Assembly (NCBI RefSeq): GCF_002105155.1
Contig: NW_019029002.1
Span: 186,001 to 250,000, forward strand
DNA: 64,000 bases
Reading direction: 5' to 3'
From: Lobosporangium transversale
Lineage: Eukaryota
Below the pieces are notes generated by a model. It saw nothing but the letters and a program-made list of their open reading frames with translations. It made no database searches and was not told the DNA's origin. Both the position numbers and the translations under genes were made by a program. Below, one piece after another: positions 27,455 to 60,543 of the stretch; position 1 is the stretch's first letter; every line of letters begins with the position of its first letter.

Positions 27455-28003
27455 GGCGACTGTTCGATGCTTGTTGGTTTTCCAAATCTGCTTTGATTTC
27501 ACCATAGTTTAGCGGAATTGATTAGCATCCCCTGAATGGCTGCCATCCAAGGGACTAACTTCGAATGGACAGGATTTACTGTGTTGTTCAAAACAATAAA
27601 ACTTGACTGAAAGTCTGCTAATCCTCAAACTATGAGGCAAATAATGCCTCTGAACGCTTCAATAGGATTATGGCGAGTTTTTGGGGTGCAGAAAAGACAA
27701 GATTGTATCTTTTGAGCAATGAAGGATATAGGATTTGTTCCTTGGAGGCAAACTTTTTTGAAACCACGCTTGTTGCTAGTAAAAACACAAATGGTTCCCG
27801 TTTTCCGCATACTTTCAACGCTTCCACAATCCAAGGGCTGTGATGTAGCCATTAAATGTTACATGTTTGTCGAAGTATTGACACATCCCTTGCAAAAGTT
27901 CAGATGTATGCTAAGAATATTGTTTAAGGGACGTAGAGTAGTCAATAGCATGTGGCAGTATTCAGGTGTTTATACAGTATCAGATGGAGTCCGAACAGTC
28001 GCC
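27455..28003. repeat. E1 right long direct repeat (549 bp) with 12-bp TIRs
   Basis: Near-identical to 17530-18079. Confidence 0.95.
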
Positions 28004-40267: not shown

Positions 40268-40948
40268 TTAAACAGTACTGATCCTCAGTGTAGGCAATCT
40301 CTCTTTAAGCATCGCTTTCAACTTTTGAATCTCCTCCAGGTGTTCTGCTCGTGCCAGGCAATGGCTGTAAAGGCCAAACTTCCGCAACGGCAGCATTAGT
40401 TGCTTACTATGTAGCAGATGGTCCACCAGAAGCTTAAACATCTCCAAATTAAAATGCATCAAGGAATCGGACGACGACATATGGAAAGGCATTACCTTTA
40501 GGATAAATAAATATCATAAGCCTTTCCAACATGCAACGTCCTTTCAGCAGTACCGTTTGCTCTCGGATTTCTGTAACACTTTCAATAACTGTGGCGAATT
40601 CACAAGAGCTTGGTGATCCATAGAGAAGCTCCAGCGACCTCAGTGTTCGAACCAGTGGTAGTTTGTCGTCAAATACTCTTTCAAGTAATGTACCAACTAT
40701 GAAGGTTCCGAGTGTAAGCTCTACAAGGTTGGGGCAGCAGACGAGAAGATTACTGAAATGGGACACTGCAGAGGGGTTACTGAAATTAATTCTGATCAAG
40801 TGAAGGCTTCGAAGGTTTGGTGCCATTGCAAAAGTCGAAATGTTGACACGGGAGAAAAGGTTCTCAAAATATCTGAGTTTCATCGATTGGATACGTGCGT
40901 TGCTAATGAGCTGAATAAGTGGATTGAACCGGCGACCGCGATTGATAA
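40268..40948 (-). pseudogene. 3' half of a Mortierellaceae-type LRR/RNI-like gene interrupted by E2
   Basis: INRGRRFNPLIQLISNARIQSM...LRSLHL...CPNLVELTL; continues the frame of 52045-53980 once E2 is removed. Confidence 0.8.
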
Positions 40949-41464
40949 GGCGGACATCCGAACCCGAGAAGTTGCCCAAAATACAAATAAATGTAAGATA
41001 TTCGAAGGTCCAAGCTACATCCGAAGGCTCTCAGAAAGTAAGTTGTTGCCATAACTAATCTTTTAAAATATATTCTGATGAATAGATGCGAGACTCGAGC
41101 AACAAATCTAATTAAAAACATTCTAACTATCACAAAGCTGAAGTCCTTTTGCCCGGTGATTTGATAGGCTGTTTAAAATTTATTTATTAAAGACATTGAC
41201 TACTTATCTGAGGATAGACTTCATGTGAGACACTGATGCGGCTGGTCAACCTATAACCAGACCAACAGACACCACTGCTGCCTTCGGATTATAATGCCAA
41301 ACACCCAATACATATACTACGGGTTCATTAAAACACACTGTTCGGCCTGCAGCCCACTAATATCAAACACTCCCAAATTGGGCATCTCTTTTTTAAAAAG
41401 TGCGATTAAATTCGAACAGGATTTATCTGGGTGGCCAAATCAGTTTCGAGCTCGGATGTCCGCC
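40949..41464. repeat. E2 left long direct repeat (516 bp) with 13-bp TIRs GGCGGACATCCGA...TCGGATGTCCGCC
   Basis: Only one substitution noticed versus 51529-52044. Confidence 0.97.
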
Positions 41465-41557
41465 TTGTGGTATCCCTTCTTTCGTTTTCGGTCCTCATGA
41501 TACCCGAATTCTCATATGATAACACATTCCTACGGAAGAAGGGATAGTTAAACTAGA

Positions 41558-42943
41558 TCAAAACTCGCGTTTGGAGTTCCAGTAGTCATCAATGGCGCGA
41601 GTCTGATTAAAGCTGCTGAGTGGCTCCCATGAATTGTCACATTTATTGTAGCCCTTCCATTGAACAAGATATTCTACTCCATCCCCTTCTCCTCGGTGCT
41701 CTATTATCTTTTTGATTTCATATGCAGTTTCTATATTGCTATCACCCATTTCATGATCGTTGTCAACATTTGAGGTAGTAGTGATACCGAGATTTAAAAA
41801 AGCATCCTGAAGCTGATACATGCTTCGAGCATCTTTGATTTCTACAACATAGCTTGGAGCAGTGGGAATTTGAGAAATGTTTGCCTCAGTGCCATCTGGA
41901 TAGTCGAAGTTCTCTTGCATCCAGAAGCTGTGATGTGGCTCTATAGTTATATTACGTAAGGCAACCATGCGTTTGATATTGAGAAGTAGGCAGCATAGCT
42001 TAAATTGCAGAGAGAAAATACTCTTTTCAGATACCCTCTTCACCACAGTATGACTGAATTTGGTGAAGATGGTCTGCATTTCTCCGAAATAACTTTCAAT
42101 CCTAGAACGAAAACTCCCAACCATTTCGTTATACTTTTTTTCCTGGTCTGTAAATGCTATCCCTCTTGTCTTGCGGACTGGACAGCAGAAGTTTGTTGAT
42201 TCCAGTTGGTCACTGTGTTCAATGATCCCATGTAGGAATTGCGAATAGCCTCCATCCAGGGTAATACAGTCAAGGCGATCGATTTTCTTCTCAATGGCCA
42301 TTTTGGAGAGCATGGTTCCATCACTAAAATCACGGCATTCGGCGGGTTGTGATACAAACACAATCATGCTATTCATATCACAGCATACTTGTGTGCGGAA
42401 CCCAGACTTTTTGAGTTTGTATGAATACAAACTGGCTTTATCTGCATTTAGGTATGCCACTCGACTATCATGGCCATCGATGTGAAGTGTAATATGTTTG
42501 AACTCCTCTGGGTTGATGGATCGTGATGTGAGCAGACGCAAGGTAATACTTGAGGACATGTTAGCAAGACAGGACGTTAACTTTGAATCCAGGGTATGTG
42601 TTTCCCTGCCAAAAAAATCTTTATACACATCATGGAATGAACTCTTGGGTAAAAATACACTCATCTCAGAGGTCGAAACCCCTTTCAATAACATGTACAG
42701 TATTAGGATGCCTTTCTCAACATTTCTGTAAGGGCCAGGATAATTCCTCGTGCCAAAAATCACTGTCAAGAAAAAGAACACTGGAACGATGCCCAGACGG
42801 TGCTGCACAAAGTCTTTGGCCTTCTCTATATTTTCCACACTCTTGATCTCAGTACGGTGGAATTTGCTCCGCTTCAAAATGGGCCAGTCCTGGTGCAGGA
42901 ATCCCCATTGAGTTGATATCAATCTGTCAAACTCTGCATCCAT
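41558..42943 (-). CDS. PIF/Harbinger-type DDE transposase with C-terminal chromodomain
   Basis: LHIDGHD, ITLDGGY, FRSRIESYFGE; YEIKKIIEHR...EYLVQWKGYNKCDNSWEP chromodomain; intact 461 aa. Confidence 0.9.
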   Translation of the reverse strand: MDAEFDRLISTQWGFLHQDWPILKRSKFHRTEIKSVENIEKAKDFVQHRLGIVPVFFFLTVIFGTRNYPGPYRNVEKGILILYMLLKGVSTSEMSVFLPKSSFHDVYKDFFGRETHTLDSKLTSCLANMSSSITLRLLTSRSINPEEFKHITLHIDGHDSRVAYLNADKASLYSYKLKKSGFRTQVCCDMNSMIVFVSQPAECRDFSDGTMLSKMAIEKKIDRLDCITLDGGYSQFLHGIIEHSDQLESTNFCCPVRKTRGIAFTDQEKKYNEMVGSFRSRIESYFGEMQTIFTKFSHTVVKRVSEKSIFSLQFKLCCLLLNIKRMVALRNITIEPHHSFWMQENFDYPDGTEANISQIPTAPSYVVEIKDARSMYQLQDAFLNLGITTTSNVDNDHEMGDSNIETAYEIKKIIEHRGEGDGVEYLVQWKGYNKCDNSWEPLSSFNQTRAIDDYWNSKREF

Positions 42944-43008
42944 TGTATAACATCACTAGCTATTATAGATATATATTCATTTAAAGATTATATTTTGGGA
43001 TTTGCTCT

Positions 43009-43090
43009 GCGGACCAGGGGCCAACTTGCAAGCTCTCTCTTAGAAAAGAATTTGTAAGTTGGCCCCGGATAAACTGGTCGGGTAAATATG
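43009..43090 (+). repeat. E2 hairpin site 1 (orientation A, 'flip' core)
   Basis: GCGGACCA-GGGGCCAACTT-GCAAGCTCTCTCTTAGAAAAGAATTTGT-AAGTTGGCCCC-GGATAAACT...GGGTAAATATG. Confidence 0.95.
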
Positions 43091-43386
43091 TTAAAAAATA
43101 AAAAGATAGCCCTCGGGAGGGAGCAGGCGAGTGGCAGACGAGAGATACGTTATACTCGACTTTTTAATAAAAGCGGAAATAGGCACATTTTTAAATCAAA
43201 ATCTTGTGTTCTTTATTTTTAAAAAGTGCATAACATATAATGCAGTCAGCGCGAGGTCATTGAGTGTTGGTGTTGTAGATGCGAGTGATATATTCGATCA
43301 TCTCCTCCTCAGTCTTCTTTTCCTACCGAAGGTCCTATCCACTAAGCGTGGGGCTGGAGGATTGCAGAATGCTGTGGGCCTTCAGG

Positions 43387-44170
43387 CTAATCGCTTTCTG
43401 GGCTGGGAGCAACAGCAGGAGTGGTGGCAGTGGCTGGACTGGCAGCGGCAGCTGGGCCGTCCCTAGTATAGGTATGGAAAACCTTTGTGATATACCCAAT
43501 CATCTCAGCTTCAGTGTTATTCTCGCTTCGAAGTACAAAGCTACGGTTATTAAGCTTGATCGGGGCATCTTTGTCGCGCCTCATATGCTGAATGACATTA
43601 TCTCCTCTTGGCGACGGATCAAATCGCAACTCCTTAACCTCAATAGCATCAAGCTCAGGGTTGTCGGTAATAAATTGCTTGACTCTACCGTCGATAAGCT
43701 TCCGTTGTTGAGCAAAGATGCGAAATCCTCCAACTGGCAATGGTTGAGGCTTCTGGAACTTTAAAACAACAAAGATCTCCTGGTCTTTAGATGGACGCGG
43801 TAAAACTCGATTCTGGTTGGCTTCTTGGAGTGCGCGCTCGCAGTTGACAAAGGCATCTTTAACGTTCTGCAGTTCGAGCTTAGTCTCAGCGTGGCTAGAT
43901 AACTCCTTATCAAGCTCCGCCTTGGTCCCTTGGCGCGCATACTCACTGTTGGCAAGAGCGAGTTTAGAGTTTTTCAACTCCAGTTCTTTCTCTTCCAAAT
44001 TGGATAGAGCTGTGTCAAGATCCGATTGAGTGGATTCCAGGTCATCCTTGGCATCCATAAGGTCTAGCTGCGTATTTCGGAGTTCAAGTGAGGGCTGCAA
44101 CCTTCTCTTGCAGTCTTTCAATACTGGACTCTTGTGCTGGTCTGGCGGGTCTGGTGGTGGTGGTGGTCAT
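43387..44170 (-). CDS. Coiled-coil + DUF3627-like protein; apparent frameshift near 44090
   Basis: ATG 44170 gives MTTTTTRPARPAQESSIERLQEKVAAL, which shifts into LELRNTQLDL...; homolog of 23058-23621. Confidence 0.65.
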
Positions 44171-44506
44171 AGTTCAAAATTGTTTTTTGGGTGAAGTAAT
44201 TAAGAAAGTTTTGAGTGGCATAATTTCAAAAGGCCACGGTTTAAATTGCAAATTTCGACAGAAATTGGTTGAGCTGGCATAATTTAATTGGTTCAGGTAA
44301 GGAAAATTGGGAAGGAAAAGAGGTGATTTGGCAGAATTCCATTGGACGAATTTTTTTTTTAAAAAAAGAAAAGGAAGGAAAAGGAAGCAAACTCACGTCA
44401 CAGGGTGAAGGATTTTATTTTAATGACTTTAAAAAGCACTATCTCGTTTTGGCGAACCTGAGCCACAGCCGGAAATTTTTTTTTCGGTGCATTTGAACAG
44501 CTTCAT

Positions 44507-44600
44507 GCGCACGGGCCAGGCTTGGCGGTGGCCAACTTACAAATTCTTTTCTAAGAGAGAGCTTGCAAGTTGGCCACCGGCTAAACTACGGGTAAATATG
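44507..44600 (+). repeat. E2 hairpin site 2 (orientation A, 'flop' core)
   Basis: GCGCACGG...CGGTGGCCAACTT-ACAAATTCTTTTCTAAGAGAGAGCTTGC-AAGTTGGCCACCG-GCTAAACTACGGGTAAATATG. Confidence 0.95.
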
Positions 44601-44847
44601 GTGACTGGATCGCACGGCCACCACTACCACCACTTTTTTGCATTTTTAAAAAAAAAAAAAAAAATTTATTACTGAGATGTCGATTGTGTTACCATTCGCC
44701 TCCAGAAATAAATGCTCTTGAAGACCAGCTCAAATTCCATATAAATACACCCAACTTGTGGAGGACCTTTTCTGCTCTATTTAATTCTATTTTCTAAATA
44801 CGACAATTAAAAAGGTGACCAACATTTGCATCATTGCGTGGTGGATT

Positions 44848-45016
44848 GGACGTATCTGGCACGATCTGGACTAATAATTAGCGAAGCCACTTCTTAGCGA
44901 CAGCCGTGGACAGCACGTGACAATCCTGTCGGGGTATGGACATATCTGGCACAATCTGGACTAACAGTTGGCAAGCCACCTTTTAGCGACAGTTGTGGAC
45001 AGCATGCGACAATCCC
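44848..45016. repeat. Imperfect 90-bp tandem duplication upstream of the E2 cargo gene
   Basis: GGAC.TATCTGGCAC.ATCTGGACTAA...AAGCCAC...TTAGCGACAG..GTGGACAGCA.G.GACAATCC starting at 44848 and 44938. Confidence 0.85.
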
Positions 45017-45353
45017 GGGTAGCAAAATTTCTTTCACTACGCCACAAAGAAACAAATGCTGATGTCTGGCAAGAAATTTGCGACCGTAAATTTATAAACA
45101 TTTAAGCTGTCACAATAAAACTCTCATGGAATTTTTTTTGGAAAAATGCATTTGAAGTATGTGGGACCTAATCAATATGTCTTTTTTTGAAATTTTAGAT
45201 ATAACAGTCACAAATGTGACATGATGCTAAAAATAGATGGTTTTTTTTTGAAAAAAGAAAAATTCTCACACTTCTTCTCACACTTCTTCTCACACTTCTA
45301 CAACTTTTCAATCACACACTTTATTCCCAAGTTTTCCTTTCGCCCTGAAAATA

Positions 45354-47208
45354 ATGATTTCAAAAGCAGAATTTCTCCGCAACACCAAGGCAACTGAGCC
45401 CTATCACATTATTGAACCATTCGTACGATTATTTGGAATTAAGGATACAGAAGAATTTTTAAGTGTTATTTCCGCCGCCTTGACGGAGCTCCTTGATGTA
45501 AATTACGACAATAATGACCAGGAACTATATCAACAATGCAAACGCTACGCTCGATGGAAACAAGTTGTTGAGGTATAGAGGCCCGAGATAGTATTAAATA
45601 ATTCATATTTGAACGCCTCTAATGTATGACCAAGCAGACCGTAACACGATCTCTTATTGTTATTTATAGTCAAAGACATTCCGCACGTCTTGTACCAAAT
45701 TTTTCGCTAAGAAGACTGCCGCCGCGACGTCTACCCCTGCTACCACTGCCAACACATTTCGTCGCTCGGACCGAATTAAGGAGATCCAGTCACCAGCAGC
45801 GCCTGTGAAATCCCTAACTGAGGAGGAAATACGGATTGATGGATTATTTTTAAAAAAAGACACGGAAACGATCGGACAAAGGATCAAACAGAGAGCTCTG
45901 GACCTAGAAGCTACTGTAACATCACCTGAGTTCAAAGATGTACACGAGCGCCGGATCTTTTCTCTTGGAGCCTCGTCAATTCTGGATCTAGTAGATATGT
46001 CAAACGAGAGTCAGCTTTTCGATGTATTTCCCAGTAAGAGTGATCAGGATGAGTTAATGACGATGTTTGCTCATCTAAGCATGAAGAGATCCATTAATGC
46101 ACCTGAACCAACTGAGTTGCTGACACATTGGGATATCTGCAGTGCGATTGCTTCTAAAGATGGGCTTGCTGAAGCACGATCCTACCTATATCGAGAGATG
46201 GGAGCCTGTCTGCCGAGCTTTGCGGAGAATCTCAAGCCTCTCCTGATAATGATTGACGCCCTCCTATGTTATCCCAAGATATTTGCACAAGAGTATGACG
46301 TAACGGAGCAGGACTTAATGAATGTTCTTTGGAGCCCGATGCTGTCTTCCTTATTTCTCCGGCAGCAGAGTGAAACTGGGATTAGGATAAAAGGAGGAGA
46401 TTCGACACAGGTAGCGTCAAACATCGAGAAAAGAGAATTCTACGATGACGGACACGCTATTGCCTTCAAAATAGATTCTCGGATCATAATAGATGTTTCC
46501 CGAAAGGGTGAAATCGACATTGCAGCCGTCGAGGTTGCTCCCAATTGCCAAGAGACCAAAATTTTTTCAGATGGGGCCAAAGTCCTCCGAGAGGCGAAGG
46601 AGATAGTAAATGGCTTGACCAAAATTTTTCCGGATGACGAAAACTTTCTCAAGAATACGATTGGTTACGGCGTTCAGATAGGGAATCTGTCTGGGTCGAT
46701 ATTTTCTCTGCATCTAGTTGCTCCGAAGCTATATGTAGCATGGCCAGAACATACATTCTGCCTTCCTGATTCACGAGGATCCTTGGATCGATTCAAGGAA
46801 GTCATTATAGCACTATCTTGGTTTCAACAGGCCGTCCAAGGCACCGCCATGAATATCAAATCAGCTCTTTCAGTGCAGAAAACAGTCGGAGCACTCTATG
46901 GCCACGGCTACAGCCATAAACCACTGGGTCAAAAGCAGTGGACTAACCCAACCTGGTTTGAACCATCAAAACCATCTAAGGCTCGGCCAATCCAGGAATT
47001 AATGAGGGTGGTGCACCCCATTCAGACTGCAATTAGTCCTCAATCAAGCGAAGACCTAAATAAGCAAACCCATGCGAATGCTACATATGACAGTAATGGA
47101 TGGGCCATTGTAGTGGCCAAAGATGGCCGACCAATGTACTTTAACAAGCATACACTGCAGTATCTTGAGGAACGTGGTGGCAAAAAAGCCAAAATGGACG
47201 TAGCTTAA
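45354..47208 (+). CDS. E2 cargo: putative PD-(D/E)XK/REase-fold protein with WW-like C-terminus (intron 45573-45669)
   Basis: Exon 1 splices in frame into ORF 45805-47208; EQDL...LWSPML, FKIDSRII...EIDIAAVEVA...KIFSDGAKVLREAK; tail NGWAIVVAKDGRPMYFNKHT. Confidence 0.6.
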
Positions 47209-48017
47209 TATATCAGGTAATCTATACTCTTGCTTTTCATACATGCATCTGACGTTATTCTACTTGAATTCAGTCTTGTTTTTTTTTTAAAAAAAAAAAA
47301 AAACAAAGGGTATTTTCTCGCTTCGCATTTGTATTTTCTTCTGATATTCAGATAGCATAGTGAGACCTGCACCCAATCTTATGTAGAAGTATTCCTGTTT
47401 TACGAAATAAATCAGCCATTCACAAAGACTTAGCATATCTGGTGTCCTCGAGACTCACGAGGACGAAGTGCGGGGAAGCAGCTGTGGTCGAAAGCCATTG
47501 TCTTTTTTTTAAAAAAAAATGTAACCCGAGACTTTTCGAATTAATGGATGCCTGGGCTCCAACTGCTGGGCCGCTCCCAAAGCTATGTAAGACTCGCTTC
47601 GGCCTCTTCCACTTTTTTTTCAGCCAAGGCTCGCGAGAGCGCATATATCCAATAAGCGGAAGAAATTATTTGACAAGGGTCCCAATCAGTCAGCTCAACT
47701 TTGATATTGGATCCCGGATGTCCAAAATGGCCCACGATAATTCCAATAAAATAACAAGATATTTTCAAAAATCCGGAAGATTACGTCTTTGAAAATGCTG
47801 TGCTGTTGGTCATATTATATTTGCATCAGTTCACAGCCCATAATCACCCCGGATCATACTAGGGTCGACACAGACCCGGGGCAGTTTGTTCAGTTGCAAA
47901 AGGATTAGACTGGGATTATAAATTAAAGTTATTTGTATTAATAATAATAAACTTGGGGATTTCTTTTTTTTTAAAATGCAAAAAAGTGGTGATAGTGGAG
48001 GCCTTGTGATCCAGTCC

Positions 48018-48115
48018 CATATTTAGCCGGCCGAAGGACCTGACAGTTTAGCCGGGGCCAACTTGCAAGCTCTCTCTTAGAAAGAAATTTACAAGTTAGC
48101 CCCTGGTCCGTGCGC
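48018..48115 (-). repeat. E2 hairpin site 3 (orientation B, 'flop' core)
   Basis: AGTTTAGCC-GGGGCCAACTT-GCAAGCTCTCTCTTAG...-AAGTTAGCCCC-TGGTCCGTGCGC. Confidence 0.95.
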
Positions 48116-48192
48116 AGGGAATGATTTCAAAAATTAAATAACTGAATATAAATTTTTTATATGTATATACAACAAGACGCACATTATAAACA

Positions 48193-51100
48193 ATGTACAA
48201 ATTTGGAGCCACATTCTACTCGCAAAAGCAACAGGGCCTTAGGCCACAGGCAGCATCTTTCAAGAGAGCTGATGAGGCTCAGAACACATTTCTTGTTGCT
48301 CATCAATTCAAGCTCAACTCGGAGGGCAAACCGCTTTGGGCATTTGGTAGCTACAAAAATCTGCAGAGCTTCCTGGAATGCACAAAGTATGTACCAGCCA
48401 CTGAATGCTTCTTCTTTGAGCAAATCCGCGATGGGACATCTTGCTGGGAATACTACGACCTGGAATGGGATCCCTCAAAGACAGAGGACACTGAGGAGAC
48501 AATCTTCTCAGATTTTTTGCAGCAAAGGAATGCCTTCTGTCTAGAATATGAGGTCTTAGCTTCTGAGTGCCGCATCTTGAGTGCATCAAATGCTGAAAAA
48601 GGGTCAATGCATATCATCTTATCAGGGTCTGGATTCAAGTTCAGAGACAACACATGCCATATGAAAAACTTTATGGACGCCTTCCATTTGATGGTTAAAG
48701 AACATCCACTTTCAAAACACATTGATTGGATTGTCTACACAAAGAATCGAAACTTCAGATGCATCAATAGTGCTAAGCGCCATGATCCAACAAGGGTTCT
48801 CCGACCTGCAATTTGGCACAATGCCTCCTGCTCTGCACCTGAGAGTGAGTTTTTTGTCACCAATGTGAGTGCTGATGCCACAGATATTGTGCATTGTCAT
48901 CTTGCAGCAAGCAAAGGTGCTAGAAATAAAGTACCTCAAGTACAGGGGTCTGAGCAGGATCAAGACCAAGAGCAAAACGAAAAGTTGCCACCTAGTGTGA
49001 TTAAAGCAATAAATACCATGCTTGCAAATATGGATTGCTTGTCACAGTTCAAGATTGGCGAATCTCATAACAATCGTATGCACCTGAAGCGTATAAGATC
49101 AGGGCACTGTCAAATATGTAATAGGATCCACGACAATGACAATGCATATGTGACAATTGCAGATCAGGGGAAAGTGTACCTCCACTGCTATAGGGTGGAT
49201 GCAAATTCCAGGCGTGATGGACTTCAAATTGGCAAACTGGATTTTCCAAGCATGATCGCACTTCGAGTACATAGGGCACAGACCAATCAAGAAGAAACAA
49301 TCACTGCGAACAAACATTGCTCACTTCGCCATTTGGAGTATAAGAAAGTTATGAAGCTGCTGCAAAACCAGAAACAGAGTCTTGTGATCCGCAGTGAACC
49401 AGACACTGCTAAGACCTCTTTTGTTGAAAGTTTTATGGATAGGCACAAGAACTTAGCATACATTTTTGTGTCTCCTCGACAATCACTAGCACGCAATCTA
49501 GAGAAGCGCCTTGAGCTAAGGAGCTATCTTAGTTTCCCTGGGCCTGTCTCTGGGAAGCGCGTGATCATTCAAGCTGAGTCCTTATATAAGCTTGACCTTG
49601 AATACTATAGCATGGATGTGGTCCTGGTCTTGGATGAGGTCTGCTCTATTTTTGAACAGATGACAAGTGTGGGCACCATGAAAGGCCGCCATGGCGCAAA
49701 CAATCAAGTCCTAGAAGAACTTATGCGCAAGTCCAAGAGGGTAATTGCCTTGGATGCTGATGTGACAGACCGAGAGGCTGAAATCATCAAGTCTGTGAGG
49801 AGCGATGTTTTTGTCATTCACAACACTTTCAAGCCACAGCAAGGGCATCAAGTTGTGTGCTTCCAGCATAAAGAAGTCTTAGAGTCTCATGTTATTGATC
49901 TTGTAAAATCTGGTCATAAGGTCTGGATATCAACCACACACTCAGCTGAAGATGCCGAGACCCTGCATAAGACACTGCAGAAAATGGGCAGAAGGGGTGT
50001 CTGTATCACAAAGAACACATCTGATGCTGATAAGATTGGCATCTCACAAAATATCAACAAAATTGTGCTGGACCTTGACTATTTCATTCACACTCCGACC
50101 ATCACAGTTGGTATAGACTGCAATGTGAAGCATTTCAACTATGTCGTGGGGTTCTTTGAAGCACAAACTGGCGTCATTGTTGAAACATGTAGACAGATGT
50201 TGCGACGACCGCGAAATGTCAGCACTCAAAAATATCTCATCTATATCAAAAATGTAACTAGCAATCTACCCACCACTTTCAGAGAGATTGTTGAGTATAT
50301 GGAAAGCCAGGAAGTGCGACTGAATGGATGTGAATTAGACATAAGTGGATTTCCTTATATATCTCAAATGGGTCAGCCTCCATCCGTTGACTTGAAAGTG
50401 CTATATGCATTAATATACATGCAGACACTCATCAAGAAGCACTTGACAAAGAATGACTTTTATCAACGCTTTATTGACCAAATGGTCCAAGTTGGCTGCA
50501 GTGTACAGGAAGCTGACTCGCATCTGTGTAAAAACGATGAATATACTGTGGAACTAAACCAAAACAAGAAAGAGCTGCTACATATCAAGTACACAGGAAT
50601 TTCGAAAGCTAGGGTCCTTGATACTGAGGAGTTTTCTCGGTTAGATGTACAAAACAGTCGAACACAGGAGGAACAATATGCTGTGACGAAGTATAAGCTA
50701 ATGGAGACCTACAGTGTACAAGATGCATCTCTTTTGACTCCTGATTGGGTTGAGAAATATGACAAACCTCGAGAGAAGAAGATCTATAAGAATCTTGCTA
50801 TGTTGAAAGAGGACCCCACACTTCAAATCTTGCGACAAGAAGATAGATTGGGTCTCAAATGTGGCAAAGCTACAGTTGGGGTTCACACACTGGGAAATTC
50901 GAGATACCTCAGGTTTAAGTATGCAAAAGACATTCTTGACAGCTGTGGATTTGATTCGCCATTTGATGACAGAGAGATGTCAGCTGAGGAGCTCAAGAGA
51001 AAAATAGATCTTCGTTGGTCAGATTTGGTCAAGGACGGAAGTATGAGAGACATCTGCACTCAGCTGGGGATTAGATGCCCCTCACACAACAATTGGGACT

Positions 51101-51249
51101 TCAAAAATAAGAAAAGCTTTTTGAATAGTGTGTTGAACGAGATTTGGGGGATCCACATAGTCAGAACTGATCACAAGTCGCATCATTATTATATCAAGTA
51201 TATGACAGAGGTTGGTAAACACAAAGATGACTTTTTCATGACACAGTAG
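48193..51249 (+). CDS. AEP primase-polymerase + Zn finger + UL9-like SF2 helicase fusion (1018 aa, intronless)
   Basis: EYYDLEW, GSMHII, HIDWIVYTKNRNFRCINSAK; CQICNRIHDNDN...LHCYR; SEPDTAKTS (degenerate Walker A), LVLDEV, HTPTITVGID, RQMLRRPR. Confidence 0.88.
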   Translation: MYKFGATFYSQKQQGLRPQAASFKRADEAQNTFLVAHQFKLNSEGKPLWAFGSYKNLQSFLECTKYVPATECFFFEQIRDGTSCWEYYDLEWDPSKTEDTEETIFSDFLQQRNAFCLEYEVLASECRILSASNAEKGSMHIILSGSGFKFRDNTCHMKNFMDAFHLMVKEHPLSKHIDWIVYTKNRNFRCINSAKRHDPTRVLRPAIWHNASCSAPESEFFVTNVSADATDIVHCHLAASKGARNKVPQVQGSEQDQDQEQNEKLPPSVIKAINTMLANMDCLSQFKIGESHNNRMHLKRIRSGHCQICNRIHDNDNAYVTIADQGKVYLHCYRVDANSRRDGLQIGKLDFPSMIALRVHRAQTNQEETITANKHCSLRHLEYKKVMKLLQNQKQSLVIRSEPDTAKTSFVESFMDRHKNLAYIFVSPRQSLARNLEKRLELRSYLSFPGPVSGKRVIIQAESLYKLDLEYYSMDVVLVLDEVCSIFEQMTSVGTMKGRHGANNQVLEELMRKSKRVIALDADVTDREAEIIKSVRSDVFVIHNTFKPQQGHQVVCFQHKEVLESHVIDLVKSGHKVWISTTHSAEDAETLHKTLQKMGRRGVCITKNTSDADKIGISQNINKIVLDLDYFIHTPTITVGIDCNVKHFNYVVGFFEAQTGVIVETCRQMLRRPRNVSTQKYLIYIKNVTSNLPTTFREIVEYMESQEVRLNGCELDISGFPYISQMGQPPSVDLKVLYALIYMQTLIKKHLTKNDFYQRFIDQMVQVGCSVQEADSHLCKNDEYTVELNQNKKELLHIKYTGISKARVLDTEEFSRLDVQNSRTQEEQYAVTKYKLMETYSVQDASLLTPDWVEKYDKPREKKIYKNLAMLKEDPTLQILRQEDRLGLKCGKATVGVHTLGNSRYLRFKYAKDILDSCGFDSPFDDREMSAEELKRKIDLRWSDLVKDGSMRDICTQLGIRCPSHNNWDFKNKKSFLNSVLNEIWGIHIVRTDHKSHHYYIKYMTEVGKHKDDFFMTQ

Positions 51250-51423
51250 GCTTGTATATAATGATTTTTAAAAAAGTGGCGTCCTTCAGTCAAGATTTAG
51301 AAGATGGATTCAAGTATAGTTCATGTAATATTACCATCTGGGTAACCAATCAGAGCAGGCTAATAGGCTAATAGGCTAATATATTATTTGAGTTACTACT
51401 GAGGACTATATAACCGGGAGTAA

Positions 51424-51494
51424 CATTTAGCCGGGGCCAACTTACAAATTCTTTTCTAAGAGAGAGCTTGCAAGTTGGCCCCTGGTGCGTGCGC
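51424..51494 (-). repeat. E2 hairpin site 4 (orientation B, 'flip' core)
   Basis: CATTTAGCC-GGGGCCAACTT-ACAAATTCTTTTCTAAGAGAGAGCTTGC-AAGTTGGCCCC-TGGTGCGTGCGC, 34 bp before the right direct repeat. Confidence 0.95.
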
Positions 51495-51528
51495 AGGGCT
51501 TGACTCACCCTCCAAAAGAAATTGGGAA

Positions 51529-52044
51529 GGCGGACATCCGAACCCGAGAAGTTGCCCAAAATACAAATAAATGTAAGATATTCGAAGGTCCAAGCTACAT
51601 CCGAAGGCTCTCAGAAAGTAAGTTGTTGCCATAACTAATCTTTTAAAATATATTCTGATGAATAGATGCGAGACTCGAGCAACAAATCTAATTAAAAACA
51701 TTCTAACTATCACAAAGCTGAAGTCCTTTTGCCCGGTGATTTGATAGGCTGTTTAAAATTTATTTATTAAAGACATTGACTACTTATCTGAGGATAGACT
51801 TCATGTGAGACACTGATGCGGCTGGTCAACCTATAACCAGACCAACAGACACCACTGCTGCCTTCGGATTATAATGCCAAACACCCAATACATATACTAC
51901 GGGTTCATTAAAACACACTGTTCGGCCTGCAGCTCACTAATATCAAACACTCCCAAATTGGGCATCTCTTTTTTAAAAAGTGCGATTAAATTCGAACAGG
52001 ATTTATCTGGGTGGCCAAATCAGTTTCGAGCTCGGATGTCCGCC
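51529..52044. repeat. E2 right long direct repeat (516 bp) with 13-bp TIRs
   Basis: Near-identical to 40949-41464; followed by TAA. Confidence 0.97.
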
Positions 52045-53505
52045 TAATGTCAGGTGTTGGTCGTCGAAGATACTCTCCGTCCACGCAGAGGCGGACAAGG
52101 TTTGATGTAGTAGCAGCCGTTGCAAATTCTCAAAAGTCCTCCATTGTTGCGTCCCACCCGAATTTGAAAGTCAACTCCTGGATACCGCGCGCTTGGACCA
52201 TGACTTCATAAAACTCCTTTGCTTGTACTGACGATCTGAGACTAGTGTCGATGCTACCATGCTGCTCATCATATTCGCCGCCGTTAGCTGCAACGATCTC
52301 CTTGAACCGCTATACTACTGATTCCCTGTAGCTCTCTCGATAGTGGTCGAAACATACCCATTTGACATGGCCCTCAAGAGTGACAATGCGATATAGGTTA
52401 CCGAGGGTACGGCTCTGGTTGTGGGCCAGCAAAAACGATTGGAGCCGCCGTAGGTCTGCCCCTTCAAGCACTTCTGATTTCCCGATCATTGCCTGGCCCG
52501 CAATGTTATTAATACCACCATCGGCTTCCTGATGATTGTTTTGGAAGTAATTGATTGATTCATCCACAAGTAATACGATCCCGTGCCCTGACACCTTCAC
52601 TACACCTCTCGCTACATCAATCCAGTCTGAGATGTCGAGTTGAGCCAATGGAGGCAAGACAAAGCCAGCAGCAAGGACTCCGTATTTAAGTATCTGTAGC
52701 ATTGTCAATACATAGGATCCGTACTTCTCAAAGAACTCTGCGGGTCGGTCGATATTATACCCTTCATGCTTTGCCAGATGTATATGGTGCGGGATATTGC
52801 TCTTGGATGGCTTCGTGTGACCGCCACACTTACGCAGGAAGAACAACCGAAACTGGTATGCAAATGGTTTCCCTAGCTTATCAAGGGGTCCTGTAAGCTT
52901 TGGGAGGACGATGAACAGTCTGGGGATTGGGTATTCGTGCAATTCGTAGGTCTGAGTGATGGGAGCTTGCACTCGGCTTTGAATGATGGCTAGCCTGTCC
53001 AGAACCTGTTTCTGCATCTGCAACATCTCACTCTGTTTATTCTGCAAAAGCTGCAGTTCCTCCCTATTCTTCTTTATCTCTTGTTGCATCTGCTGTCGAA
53101 GGGCTTTGATGAGCTCGGTGTCTTCTCGCTGCTGACTAAAATGTACTGCCATGGTTGCTTTGAGCCATAACATCGGTTTGATTCATTTGGATCACCTCCG
53201 TTGATTTAGAGTGAGAGCTGTCGATGCAGTTATTCTGAAAGGATGGCGGTTGGACATTAGTGTCCATAGCACTGGGAAGAAGGGTCAGTTTGGGTCCCTC
53301 CAAAAGCTTGTCTGAGATGGGAAGGTCCCCAATGTGCTTTGACATTGCACTCGTTAGTGCTTCGGCGGAGGATGCTTTTAAGAACGCATGAAAAGGTGAA
53401 AGGGGTACCTCAGAGGTGGCGTTGATACGAGCTGGCGCGCTGACCACGACTTGCAAGGTAGTCCCTGGTCGATATTGGACCCTTAAAGGAACAAGACTAA
53501 AAGGA

Positions 53506-56692: not shown

Positions 56693-57330
56693 ATGTTTCA
56701 GGCCGATAATTACATTTCATTTCATGACCTCAGTCCCGAGGCACGCATCCTTTGGGTGTCACCGTCCATGATGGATGTGCTCGGGTATTCGTCAGAGGAT
56801 GTGGTTGGACGGAATGCATATGATATCATTTATCCGGATGACCACACCCAGGGGCGAGTGGTTCATAAGGAGAATGTGATGAATGACTTTGTGGCCAGTC
56901 AGGTCGTCCTTCGATACAAGGCCAAGGACGGTCGAGCTGTGCCCTGTGTAGCAGTCTTCAGTCTCTGCTATGACTTTATCCTCAATTGTTCCACCCTTGT
57001 CGATCCAAGTGCTGCTGCCTGTGAGTTTTCTTTTTCTTTTCTTTCCCTTTCCCTTTCCCTTTTCTACCTTATCCTCACTCAATCCTCAATCAATCCTCAA
57101 CCAACCCGTAACTGGTTTTTTATTATTATTATTATTATTATTGTTGATTCAGGTCCCTTTGAGGACCGTTTTTATCCAAAGGATATCACTGGTTAAATTT
57201 CTTTTTTTGTTCTAGTCTCCTATTTTCTTTTTTTTTTTTTTTTCTTCTTGACCAATTGGGAGAGGATTGCTTGTCCAAAGGTTGAAGCATTTAACAACAT
57301 AGTATCAGAAAACTCAAACTGACAATGTCC

Positions 57331-57364
<34 letters not shown>

Positions 57365-58963
57365 TTGCAGATAGACACCTTCGAGCGCATTCTTCTGCAA
57401 TGACTCGCCTCGTAGGATCTAGAAAAGCGGTAAGTGAACTAACTTGTTAGCTAAAAAAACATTTATGCACTTTCTTTTTTAAAAAAAGAGTGTAACTCTT
57501 CCCTTCCATTCCTCCATCTATCTGTCTACCAATCTATCCATCCATCCATCCATCGGAGTGTAATAGTGCAATGCATTGCATTGTCCATATTCTGTATACG
57601 ACTGTATACATATCTATATACATATATGTATACATTAATTCAAAATTCAAAATTCAAAATTCACTATTCAGTATTCAGTATTCAATATTCAATATTCAAT
57701 TTGTACAAAAGATTAAATGCTGCATTTGCATAAGGTCTAGAACAGCTCGTATTCCATTGCTATCAATATATGACAACATGAACTTGTGGACTAGACAATT
57801 TTTTTTATTTTTTATTTTTTTATTTTTTTATAAATATATTTTTTTTTCTTTATTTTGTCGATCAATGGATGAATAAAAAAAAAAAAAAAAAAAAAAGACT
57901 AATGACAGCAATTTGCCTTTGATTTTTACTTGATCCGTAGGAATTCGAGCGGATCAAACGTCATCACGAGGCATTTGCAGCCAATTCATGGAATCATCAC
58001 GGATTGGAACCAGAGTTGAGGGTTTGTATGATTATGAACCGGTTCACGCGGAATCTGGTGATCATGTACGCCTCCTCAGCATGTGAATCCATCTTCCATA
58101 TCGATGCAGACTCGATCGTGGGCAAGCCCGTTCTGTTGTTTGTCCGTGCCGATGACCTGGCCCCGTTCGTGGAGCAGATGGACTCTGTCAAGGCCTCGTC
58201 CGCGATCTCCCATATGCGCTTCTGGTTTCAATCTCCTCATTGGCCACGGGAAATTCCATGCGAGGCCATCATGTTTGGGGCTGCAGACGGGATTGTGGCG
58301 ATTATGCGGAGATGTAAACCTTTTTTGAGAAAGCAGTTTATCACGGACAGTTCACATTGTGGGCCATATCATCATCATAATAATAATAACAATAAAAGTT
58401 TGGGATCATCATGGTCTTCCCTTGCCAGTGCTGCAAGGTCACGCCTCTCCACGCCCTCGACCTCCTTCAACTCGACCTCATCTCTAAAATATCCATCCCA
58501 GACAGCAAGTCCAGGGTACTATGCTGCCTCCAGAGCCAGGCTCAATAAGATCCGCATTGTGGATGAGAACGATGGACGGTTAAGGCCCCTGGCCATTCCG
58601 AAGGACGATCCCAATCTTTTGTCAGACACATCTCTCCCTGCAGCGTTCAAGGAGCATCGGGCACAATATGTGGAGGAGGAGGAGGAGGATGATGATTCGA
58701 TCGAGGTAGAGAATGAGGAGGAAGTAGAGAGATTGAGCATAGGTCTAGACGATGGAGAGACCCATATGGATTTCAATCTTGTGCAGGGTACAAAGGAGAT
58801 GGACATTGGAGGTGGCAATAGATTTCATTACCAGCAGCAGCAACAGCAACAACAACAATACTATGACTCTCACCATGATCACGGGAGTGTATACAATTCT
58901 CAGTACTCTAGTCATTCCAATATATTGGATCGTACGCGTAACAATCGTACTTCACAATCATAA
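56693..58963 (+). CDS. Tandem PAS-domain protein, copy 1 (3 exons)
   Basis: YISFHDLSPEARILWVSPSMMDVLGY..EDVVGRNAYDIIYPDD (PAS); second PAS IMYAS...IVGKPVLLFVRADD. Confidence 0.85.
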
Positions 58964-59110
58964 TCCTAATCGAATTTGAATAAAATAAAATAAAATAATA
59001 AAAAAACGTGTCGTATATGTGATATATATATATTATACATGTATAGTTCAAGAAAGAAAAAGAAAAGGCAAGCAATGTTGCTTATGCTGTGTTTGTTTAT
59101 AGCCGGAAAG

Positions 59111-59143
<33 letters not shown>

Positions 59144-60304
59144 ACTACATGTACATGTATATAGTCTATGCCTTTACACACATATACTGTACATGTACAT
59201 GTACAATGTGAAAAAAAAAGACAAAGATTATAATTTATAGAGTGGAATATGTATAAATGTAAACATTCTTTTTTTTTTTTTTTATTTGTTCCTATTAGCA
59301 GACTATCTGCAGAAAAAAAAAAAAAAAAAATGCCATGCACGTTACATGTTACATGTTACAAAACCATAAAAGAGATGTGGATGTTCGGATGGATATAGAC
59401 AAGCGGAAAAAAAGAAAGGGCTCTCGTCTGTCTGTCTGTCTGTCTGTTTTCTTCTGTTTGTTTTGTTTTCATGGGTTTTTGGCTTTTTTACCTCTGCTGT
59501 GGTTTGGACGGATGGATGGAGGGCAGGGATGTCTGCATCTGACTGGAAAAAAGTTGTTATCCATGCATAACAGTTACAGTTACACTTGCAGGGTTATACA
59601 GTTACACTTGTAGCGTTATTCATGTACATGTATACATATGTACAGTACAGTTACACTCGCACTCTACCCCTGCAACTCATGTGTCCATTATAAAGACATG
59701 GGACGGACATGGTTTATTGTTCATTCATGCATCTATTCCACTGGTAAAAAGCCAAACCAAAAAGCCGGGAACTTGCATGTTTGTGTACAGCAAAACATTG
59801 TTCGCTTGTTCCTTCCCGTCATCTTTTTTTTTTTTTTTTTTTTTTTTTTTTCACTTTGCCCAGGCTTCGACCCCCTCTTCCCCTTCTCCTTCCCCTTCCC
59901 CTCCCCCTTGACATCCTTTGGCTCCAGACCAAAAGAAGGGGGGCAAGAAACAACTTGACCTTGACATGTTCTTTTTTGTTTGTTTAAAAACATATTACCA
60001 ATCTTATCCGGGATGCTGTGTTGTCCACTCATTCCCTATCACCCTATCATTGATACTTTTTCTGTTTTTTCAACTTCAATCTTTGGTGCTTAATCTTTAG
60101 CATGGCATCGTTGCCCTACCCAATCAACGTTCACCTGTCTTTAACAAAACCCGCTCCTGAGGGTTTTTTTGTCATGGGTAAATTCAAAAAAATATTTCTT
60201 CTCTCTCTCTTTCTCTCTTTTTGCGTCTCTTACAACACACAAACACTTACTTCTTTCATTTCATTTTATCACTCTCTCTTTTCATATCTCTCCTCACCAT
60301 TTGC

Positions 60305-60340
<36 letters not shown>

Positions 60341-60543
60341 CTACAACACAACACAACTCAATACAACACTACACTACACTGCACTGCACTACACTATCTA
60401 TACCATACTATACTATACTACACTTCACTACAACTGCACTACATCATAAACACACACACGTTTATACCACTCTTAATCGAATATATACAAATATATATAC
60501 ATATAAAAATACACATACAACATATACATATTCACATAGAGCC

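Follow-up and report, generated by a model that had tools for sequence, protein, structure and literature searches.

Does the 11-kb block of DNA that interrupts a gene of the fungus Lobosporangium transversale move as an ordinary DNA transposon, or does it also live as a replicon of its own? The block, here called E2, occupies positions 40949-52044 of the window, that is, the whole analysed stretch of 64,000 nucleotides (assembly GCF_002105155.1, contig NW_019029002.1, positions 186,001 to 250,000); a sister element, E1, lies at 17530-28003. A preliminary description of this DNA had presented E2 as a PIF/Harbinger element inserted as one unit and missed the main point, namely the replicase gene in its interior. 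The E2 family is a variant of composite-like DNA transposons that has its own replicase. In our opinion, there is about an even chance that E2 is a self-replicating circle inserting by duplication of its repeat, through cointegrate formation or from a dimer.

Boundaries and insertion site of E2

E2, a Mortierellaceae element, has a repeat-interior-repeat build, and its two long direct repeats are identical at 515/516 bases. The junctions were read correctly in the preliminary description, with TAA outside both ends (Table 1), and are supported by contigs. Two matching outer 3-mers would be met by chance in 1.9% of cases, and both TAA or both TTA in 0.06%. Removal of E2 with one TAA gives the minus-strand reading quoted earlier, but the rejoined frame fails as a proof of duplication, because it is open with zero, one or two TAA kept, and it is a homolog test that decides. 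For this test, the comparison with paralogs proposed earlier, the 120 best of 1050 host-family homologs were aligned to the rejoined protein, and a gap at the junction was scored among the alignments spanning it. The junction was ungapped in 90/109 spanning homologs under the one-TAA model, against 10/111 with two TAA and 5/109 with none. The pre-insertion site thus held exactly one TAA, with nothing else gained or lost, and, as judged from these alignments, a single-site insertion of E2 with a 3-bp TAA duplication is supported. The host open reading frame (ORF) is broken as precisely as had been claimed, but it is not intact. Counted from 53173, codon 288 is TAG and codon 348 is TGA, two in-frame stops on the upstream side of the break that make the gene a pseudogene; homologs mostly have Q (71) at the former and R (85) at the latter.

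Outside support comes from Logan contigs of runs from several studies aligned to the window. X1, X3 and X4 represent three studies, possibly of one strain or of the source itself. Contigs of X1 and X4 carry all four junctions and those of X3 at least three of the four. They reach 28-30 letters into the repeats, which is below the 31-letter bar of the junction search, and the contig ends at 40976, 41436 and 52016 are the exact stops forced on 31-mer unitigs by a two-copy repeat. A contig of X10 bridges the right junction, extending 70 letters to one side and 117 to the other, and differs from the window by C>T and G>A only. Contig depth within E2 is about that of the flanks in X1, depth not being equal to copy number. 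A joint of 41428 to 52101 in X10 was considered as a solo repeat and rejected, being the right junction placed on the other repeat copy (92 letters between). The empty-site joint (40948 to 52045/52048), a check also suggested earlier, was found in none of 8 runs; every run with a close host gene contains E2, and these runs may represent a single strain, for which reason the result speaks neither for nor against the insertion.

On the inner sides, the repeats are flanked by TTG (41465-67) and GAA (51526-28) without duplication, as noted before. The inner flank TTGTGGT after the repeat end is kept in a relative from another organism (X8), and ATA is common to E1 and L001, a small relative considered below. 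The inner flanks are therefore fixed parts of the elements, and two independent insertions of miniature inverted-repeat transposable elements (MITEs) are unlikely, in agreement with the preliminary description. Unitig ends in X1, X3 and X4 appear to exclude a third identical-ended repeat copy followed by TA or TT, given that contigs drop rare and diverged copies, and the repeat is thus probably not an amplifying MITE in this genome. One-step insertion of E2 is likely. The earlier claim of insertion as one unit holds for a single site with its duplication, but a solo repeat joined later by the interior would leave the same sequence.

Replicase, other genes and palindromic sites

The helicase part of the replicase matches Herpes_ori_bp (E 6e-14), and the best solved match of the domain before it is human PrimPol (E 0.004, over three catalytic motifs). 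The primase acidic, SxH and zinc-ligand residues and the helicase DE and QxxxR motifs, conserved across 33 relatives, are kept in E2. At E 0.001, 2632 relatives of the replicase were obtained from 50% representatives; all 10 replicase matches, as well as the named transposase matches, are fungal, and belong to Mortierellaceae or Mucorales where named. A single-sequence scan of viral contigs was empty; an alignment scan found full-length relatives at 52 loci of giant-virus contigs (19-26% identity), none of which (0/52) had an E2-type transposase nearby.

The transposase is assigned by its sequence to the Harbinger/IS5-type (PHIS) DDE enzymes. It matches PF13359 (E 4.8e-8, over the cut-off), with a weak IS5_4 match in 18/36 relatives, and is the only recombinase encoded by E2. 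No Pfam match to a Myb/SANT protein and no match to a capsid, packaging ATPase, polymerase or other viral hallmark or to a His-Me finger nuclease was obtained with the four E2 ORFs; protein-primed PolB, retroviral-type integrase and Cas1 had no Pfam or PHROG match in E2, a Pfam scan of the ORFs gave no HUH Rep, and there was no Rfam match. The reading frames are intact, and the gene model annotated in Lobosporangium transversale reproduces the locus. Both cargo genes are covered without differences by contigs of X5, by guess an RNA run; the transposase and the replicase are without such cover, which carries no evidential weight. For the two-exon cargo gene, neither Pfam nor PHROG gave a family. 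Contigs of X1, X3 and X4 are about 90% alike to 44726-45787 (the upstream and 5' part of this gene) and are read, from this similarity, as a paralogous cassette elsewhere in the same genome.

The genes of E2 are separated by four imperfect palindromes of about 50 bp, and in three of them folding is much stronger than in shuffled sequences (z -3.7 to -6.0; p3, z -1.4). The context of each palindrome is polar, with an A side (ttta-rcc) and a B side (tggtccgtgcgc). Four palindromes are also present in E1; their arms differ from those of E2, but their sides and the order of polarity (BA, BA, AB, AB) agree and the core is alike. The core of p1 and p4 of E2 is flipped relative to p2, p3 and all E1 palindromes. 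A relative, L051, has one palindrome with third arms between a homolog of the 223-aa gene and the transposase. The p3 site is a module boundary: from its edge at 48047 onwards, the replicase region is matched at 97% identity by contigs of organism B (two studies), in which different DNA lies upstream. The replicase also has matches of 96-98% identity among proteins labelled Gamsiella multidivaricata, a closeness that may point to transfer between genera. By analogy with herpes oriS, the UL9-type protein may use the palindromes as origins; alternatively, they may be recombination sites. A contig of X8 runs from the replicase end (51415) back to p3 (48047), with 37 letters on the short side; this joint may represent an excised circle of the replicase cassette, or p4 with an unflipped core.

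Table 1. Features of E2 and of the interrupted host gene (positions in the window)
Feature	Position	Strand	Remarks
Host gene 3' part, pseudogene	40449..40948	-	large Mortierellaceae family, 1050 homologs
Left target-site duplication TAA	40946..40948	.	junction GATTGA-TAA, then GGCGGAC from 40949
Left long terminal direct repeat, 516 bp	40949..41464	+	13-bp inverted ends GGCGGACATCCGA
DDE transposase, 461 aa, C-terminal chromodomain	41558..42943	-	DDE_Tnp_4; D156, D230, E283 invariant in 36/36
Palindrome p1	43017..43066	-	B side left, A side right; core flipped vs p2, p3
Cargo gene, 223 aa	43387..44058	-	coiled coil and DUF3627-like domain of giant-virus KilA-N/Bro proteins
Palindrome p2	44528..44577	-	in 154-bp inverted repeat with p3
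Two-exon cargo gene, ~585 aa	45354..47208	+	intron 45573-45669, GT..AG joint in X5
Palindrome p3	48054..48103	+	A side left
Replicase, 1018 aa	48193..51249	+	PrimPol-like primase-polymerase domain, zinc finger, UL9-type superfamily 2 helicase
Palindrome p4	51433..51482	+	97% inverted copy of p1 over 64 bp
Right long terminal direct repeat, 516 bp	51529..52044	+	one mismatch to left repeat; 13-bp inverted ends GGCGGACATCCGA
Right target-site duplication TAA	52045..52047	.	junction GTCCGCC (ends 52044), then TAA-TGTCAGG
Host gene 5' part	52048..53173	-	in-frame TAG and TGA

E1 follows the same plan of repeats, transposase, PrimPol-UL9 replicase and four polar palindromes. Its repeats (550/549 bp, 97.6% identical) end in GGCGACTGTTCG, its transposase is 53% identical to that of E2, and its replicase is 45% identical and frameshifted (break near 22712). 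A Crinkler-like gene in pieces was found in E1 at 24424-27244. Palindrome p3 of E1 (24961-25008) lies in a likely intron of it, directly after the exon of the N-terminal domain (ending HIFVKLPPQG, then GT), and cassette exchange there would therefore swap N- and C-terminal modules. Elsewhere in the window, there are tandem paralogous segments in 56710-62306 (57939-58350 and 61895-62306, 74%; 56710-57044 and 60561-60894, 68%) and an inverted repeat at 61478-61738.

Transposase relatives and their partners

A scan with the transposase alignment gave 64 loci (62 from metagenomes and 2 from metagenome-assembled genomes), and none in viral contigs or plasmids. The latter two (L063, L064) are short contigs of Bacilli genomes, likely eukaryotic contamination. 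A replication-type neighbour was recognised in 26/64 loci (Rep-like 23, UL9 2, D5 1), and the gene models P0413 (UL9 and DDE) and P0135 (Prim-Pol, D5, DDE, chromo) add two adjacencies. Other neighbours belong to an unnamed second family (8 loci) or are a homolog of the 223-aa gene (1 locus), and four of the 64 loci have end overlaps of 126-130 bp. The second partner, with a Cys/His-rich N-terminus and a long acidic tail, occurs in L014 (3420-6326), L022, L019, L027, L008, L009, L045 and L052; the assemblies of L014 and L022 are circular, 9.5 and 6.0 kb long, and contain numerous internal repeats. Some gene models fuse the transposase to an aspartyl protease domain (P0085, labelled Cunninghamella) or a Crinkler N-terminus (P0040, labelled Linnemannia).

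Sister transposases have different partners: those of E1 (UL9) and L001 (Rep-like) are 74% identical, those of E2 (UL9) and P0135 (D5) 68%, and those of L003 (UL9) and L010 (D5) 89%, and all three pairs are supported at 100/99 or better. The approximately unbiased test rejects a single UL9 clade (p-AU 1e-50) and likewise a single Rep-partner clade, these p-values not being those of a blind test, because the rows of the 16-row tree were chosen after the first tree. The 71-row tree is a quick one from which 10 short loci were dropped, and both trees hold this transposase family only.

The minimal form of the transposase family is L001/L002, one element (99%) with a 3.46-kb circular assembly consisting of a Rep-like gene, the transposase and a single 418-bp unit. 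This unit (794-1211) has E1-type inverted ends GGCGACTGT and the right flank ATA, as in E1. The transposases of E1, E2 and L001 are 53-74% identical, and in all three elements the inverted-end unit does not include the transposase. A scan for GG..CC units near 79 transposase flanks gave 6 regions at 9 bp, against 11/395 shuffles, a known end being matched by L001 only.

Members of the Rep-like family are about 570 aa long (e.g., L025 1478-3181, and 22 other loci); its profile was built from 12 of the 23 loci, and Pfam matched none of 12 members. The family had no match in PDB sequences, Pfam, viral contigs or phages, and its Foldseek viral matches were weak (TM 0.2 or less). The top VIA structure match, 4cij (Z 7.2, root-mean-square deviation 5.5, 170 aligned), was tied with TBP and S6 folds, and the Atlas score was 0.90-0.91, a low recognition. 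Rep_trans initiators have a TBP-like catalytic fold with DxD, catalytic Tyr and RxE, beside which the invariant motifs HDxDxxxD, KVYNK and RxExxFY of the family may be set. A Rep_trans-type rolling-circle initiator is the likely reading, on the three weak pointers from Foldseek, VIA and Atlas.

A proposed replicating circle, rival explanations and known systems

Between insertions, E2 would likely be a circle with one repeat, copied by the PrimPol-UL9 protein, with the polar palindromes serving as origins or cassette-exchange sites. The transposase would nick the one repeat at its two ends, and replication across it would produce a cointegrate with the target duplication outside, fixed flanks inside and identical repeats, a pattern described for replicative transposition (PMC4471558). 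Alternatively, from a replication dimer, the transposase would excise the outer ends of two adjacent repeats. The two repeats would recombine to free the circle and leave a solo repeat behind, and the chromodomain would direct insertion to methylated chromatin. The replicating circle is favoured because the outer TAA, the conserved non-duplicated inner flanks, the 515/516 identity and the transposase outside the unit make up the cointegrate pattern, and because the replicase is swapped between relatives yet usual where a partner is recognised. What the data show are the boundaries of E2, its duplication and gene content, the same plan in E1, the one-repeat circular assembly of a relative and the partner swapping.

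A number of observations weigh against the replicating circle. The Walker A motif of the E2 replicase is EPDTAKT, with A for the usual G (common to P0002 and P0133), and activity is a prediction. Palindromes were found in E1, E2 and L051 only, and not in the UL9 loci L003 and L035. E1 has outer flanks TAC and AAT without target duplication, perhaps through adjacent deletion or recombination between copies. No partner was identified in 29/64 loci, many of them short, and 8/64 have the second family, which does not look replicative. The circular assembly of L001/L002 could also come from a collapsed repeat-interior-repeat or a tandem array, and the circular loci L014 and L022 have no GG..CC unit near the transposase and no recognised replicase. 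The ends of six Rep-like loci are long inverted repeats, a structure that fits plain terminal-inverted-repeat elements as well, and the reading of this family as Rep_trans is a weak one. The free circle, activity and new insertion are themselves predictions.

It is rather unlikely, though a serious possibility, that E2 is a stable composite-like cut-and-paste transposon excised at its outermost inverted ends, with inherited repeats, a replicase acting as cargo or repair helper and no free replicon. Its TWA target and DDE_Tnp_4 transposase are those of PIF/Harbinger, a cut-and-paste group (PMC4482050), KolobokP retains a like build without a replicase (PMC9587614), and the two other cargo genes in like cassettes indicate that the element collects genes. 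However, three unrelated replication-type modules beside sister transposases are hard to obtain as random cargo, the minimal relative L001 has only the unit, the transposase and the Rep-like gene, and inherited repeats should diverge, yet 1/516 bases differs, which recent origin or conversion could explain. Quite improbable is a two-step origin, in which a solo 516-bp unit inserted at TAA and a one-repeat circle with the interior recombined into it later. The final sequence would be identical, and such a course was proposed for KolobokP (model b1; PMC9587614) and reported for the targeted mode of IS26 (PMC4471558), but it needs solo units as landing pads, and three data sets have no other identical-ended copy followed by TA/TT, an objection weakened by the loss of rare and diverged copies from contigs. 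A decayed endogenous giant-virus fragment between two chance MITEs, or an assembly artefact, is largely refuted and very improbable. The full-length replicase relatives in giant-virus contigs and the DUF3627 fold of the 223-aa gene, typical of giant viruses, agree with a viral source; against it and against an artefact are the junctions in contigs of four studies, the same plan in E1 and L001, the viral contigs empty of transposase relatives, the four ORFs without capsid or hallmark matches and the intact frames.

A broader form of the replicating-circle reading is tentative, and we would sooner doubt it than accept it: these elements would form a eukaryotic class of integrative plasmids, in which one chromodomain DDE family turns any small replicon into an element resembling those with long terminal repeats. 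The replicons would be PrimPol-UL9, PrimPol-D5 or rolling-circle Rep modules forming cointegrates at the non-coding inverted-end unit, and the polar palindromes would shuffle cassettes, including Crinkler-type exons, between elements and genera.

Among known systems, KolobokP (PMC9587614) has the same long direct repeats with their own short inverted ends, an interior transposase, duplication outside only and a proposed one-repeat circle; its repeats are about 450 or 660 bp, compared with 418, 516 and 550 bp here. KolobokP differs in its Kolobok-type transposase, His-Me nuclease and occurrence in animals (PMC9587614), whereas the E2 family has a PHIS/IS5-type transposase with a chromodomain, a replicase, palindrome-bounded cassettes and a 3-bp TAA, and lives in fungi. 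We infer that the build of the E2 family is of independent origin. PIF/Harbinger elements share with E2 the DDE_Tnp_4 transposase, the TWA target duplication and short inverted ends starting with G, and differ in their Myb/SANT partner, single pair of inverted ends and size of about 4 kb (PMC4482050). E2 is about 11 kb long, with four inverted ends on two direct repeats and a primase-helicase. The earlier assignment to PIF/Harbinger thus holds for the transposase domain and for the TWA 3-bp target duplication, found at one insertion, E2, and not at E1, but not for the gene content, and E2 is not filed there, because the Myb/SANT protein and simple ends do not match. In excerpts of two papers, Harbinger is noted from Mortierella and the diversity of PHIS is described, but no elements of this kind are mentioned and the word primase does not occur (PMC5751038, PMC12730594). 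IS26/IS903-type cointegrates of bacterial insertion sequences (IS) resemble E2 in two direct-repeat units around a replicon with duplication outside only, and IS903, a relative from the IS5 family, is reported to move by replicative transposition; there, the IS itself contains the transposase and any plasmid serves as the replicon (PMC4471558). In E2, of which the end-product pattern alone is seen, the repeated unit is non-coding, the transposase and replicase are in the interior, and the host is a eukaryote.

Polintons/Mavericks, casposons and Teratorn couple an integrase or transposase to a DNA-synthesis module, or to a whole herpesvirus, and have giant-virus-like genes; the first two have protein-primed PolB, terminal inverted repeats and a retroviral-type integrase or Cas1. 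The E2 family differs from these self-synthesizing elements in its archaeo-eukaryotic primase (AEP)-helicase or Rep-like gene and direct repeats, and no capsid was found. In Helitrons and Replitrons, the HUH Rep is the transposase, a protein which E2 lacks and to which no Pfam match links the Rep-like family of its relatives. In the literature searched, to which Repbase, supplements and most subscription papers are external and may hold prior entries, no description of the E2 family, of the transposase-replicase pairing or, for such transposons, of a life cycle of circle copying and re-insertion was found.

Eukaryotic DDE elements are treated as cut-and-paste. For KolobokP, it was left open how the repeat-interior-repeat build persists and whether a circle is involved (PMC9587614). 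The E2 family is a second, probably independent case of this build; it carries replication genes and is represented by a recent, intact copy in a fungal family that can be cultured, and replicative (Mu/IS26-like) transposition in a eukaryote is therefore directly testable. It also offers a means by which giant-virus-like and Crinkler-type genes could move among Mortierellaceae, and it might serve as an episomal or large-cargo vector in these fungi.

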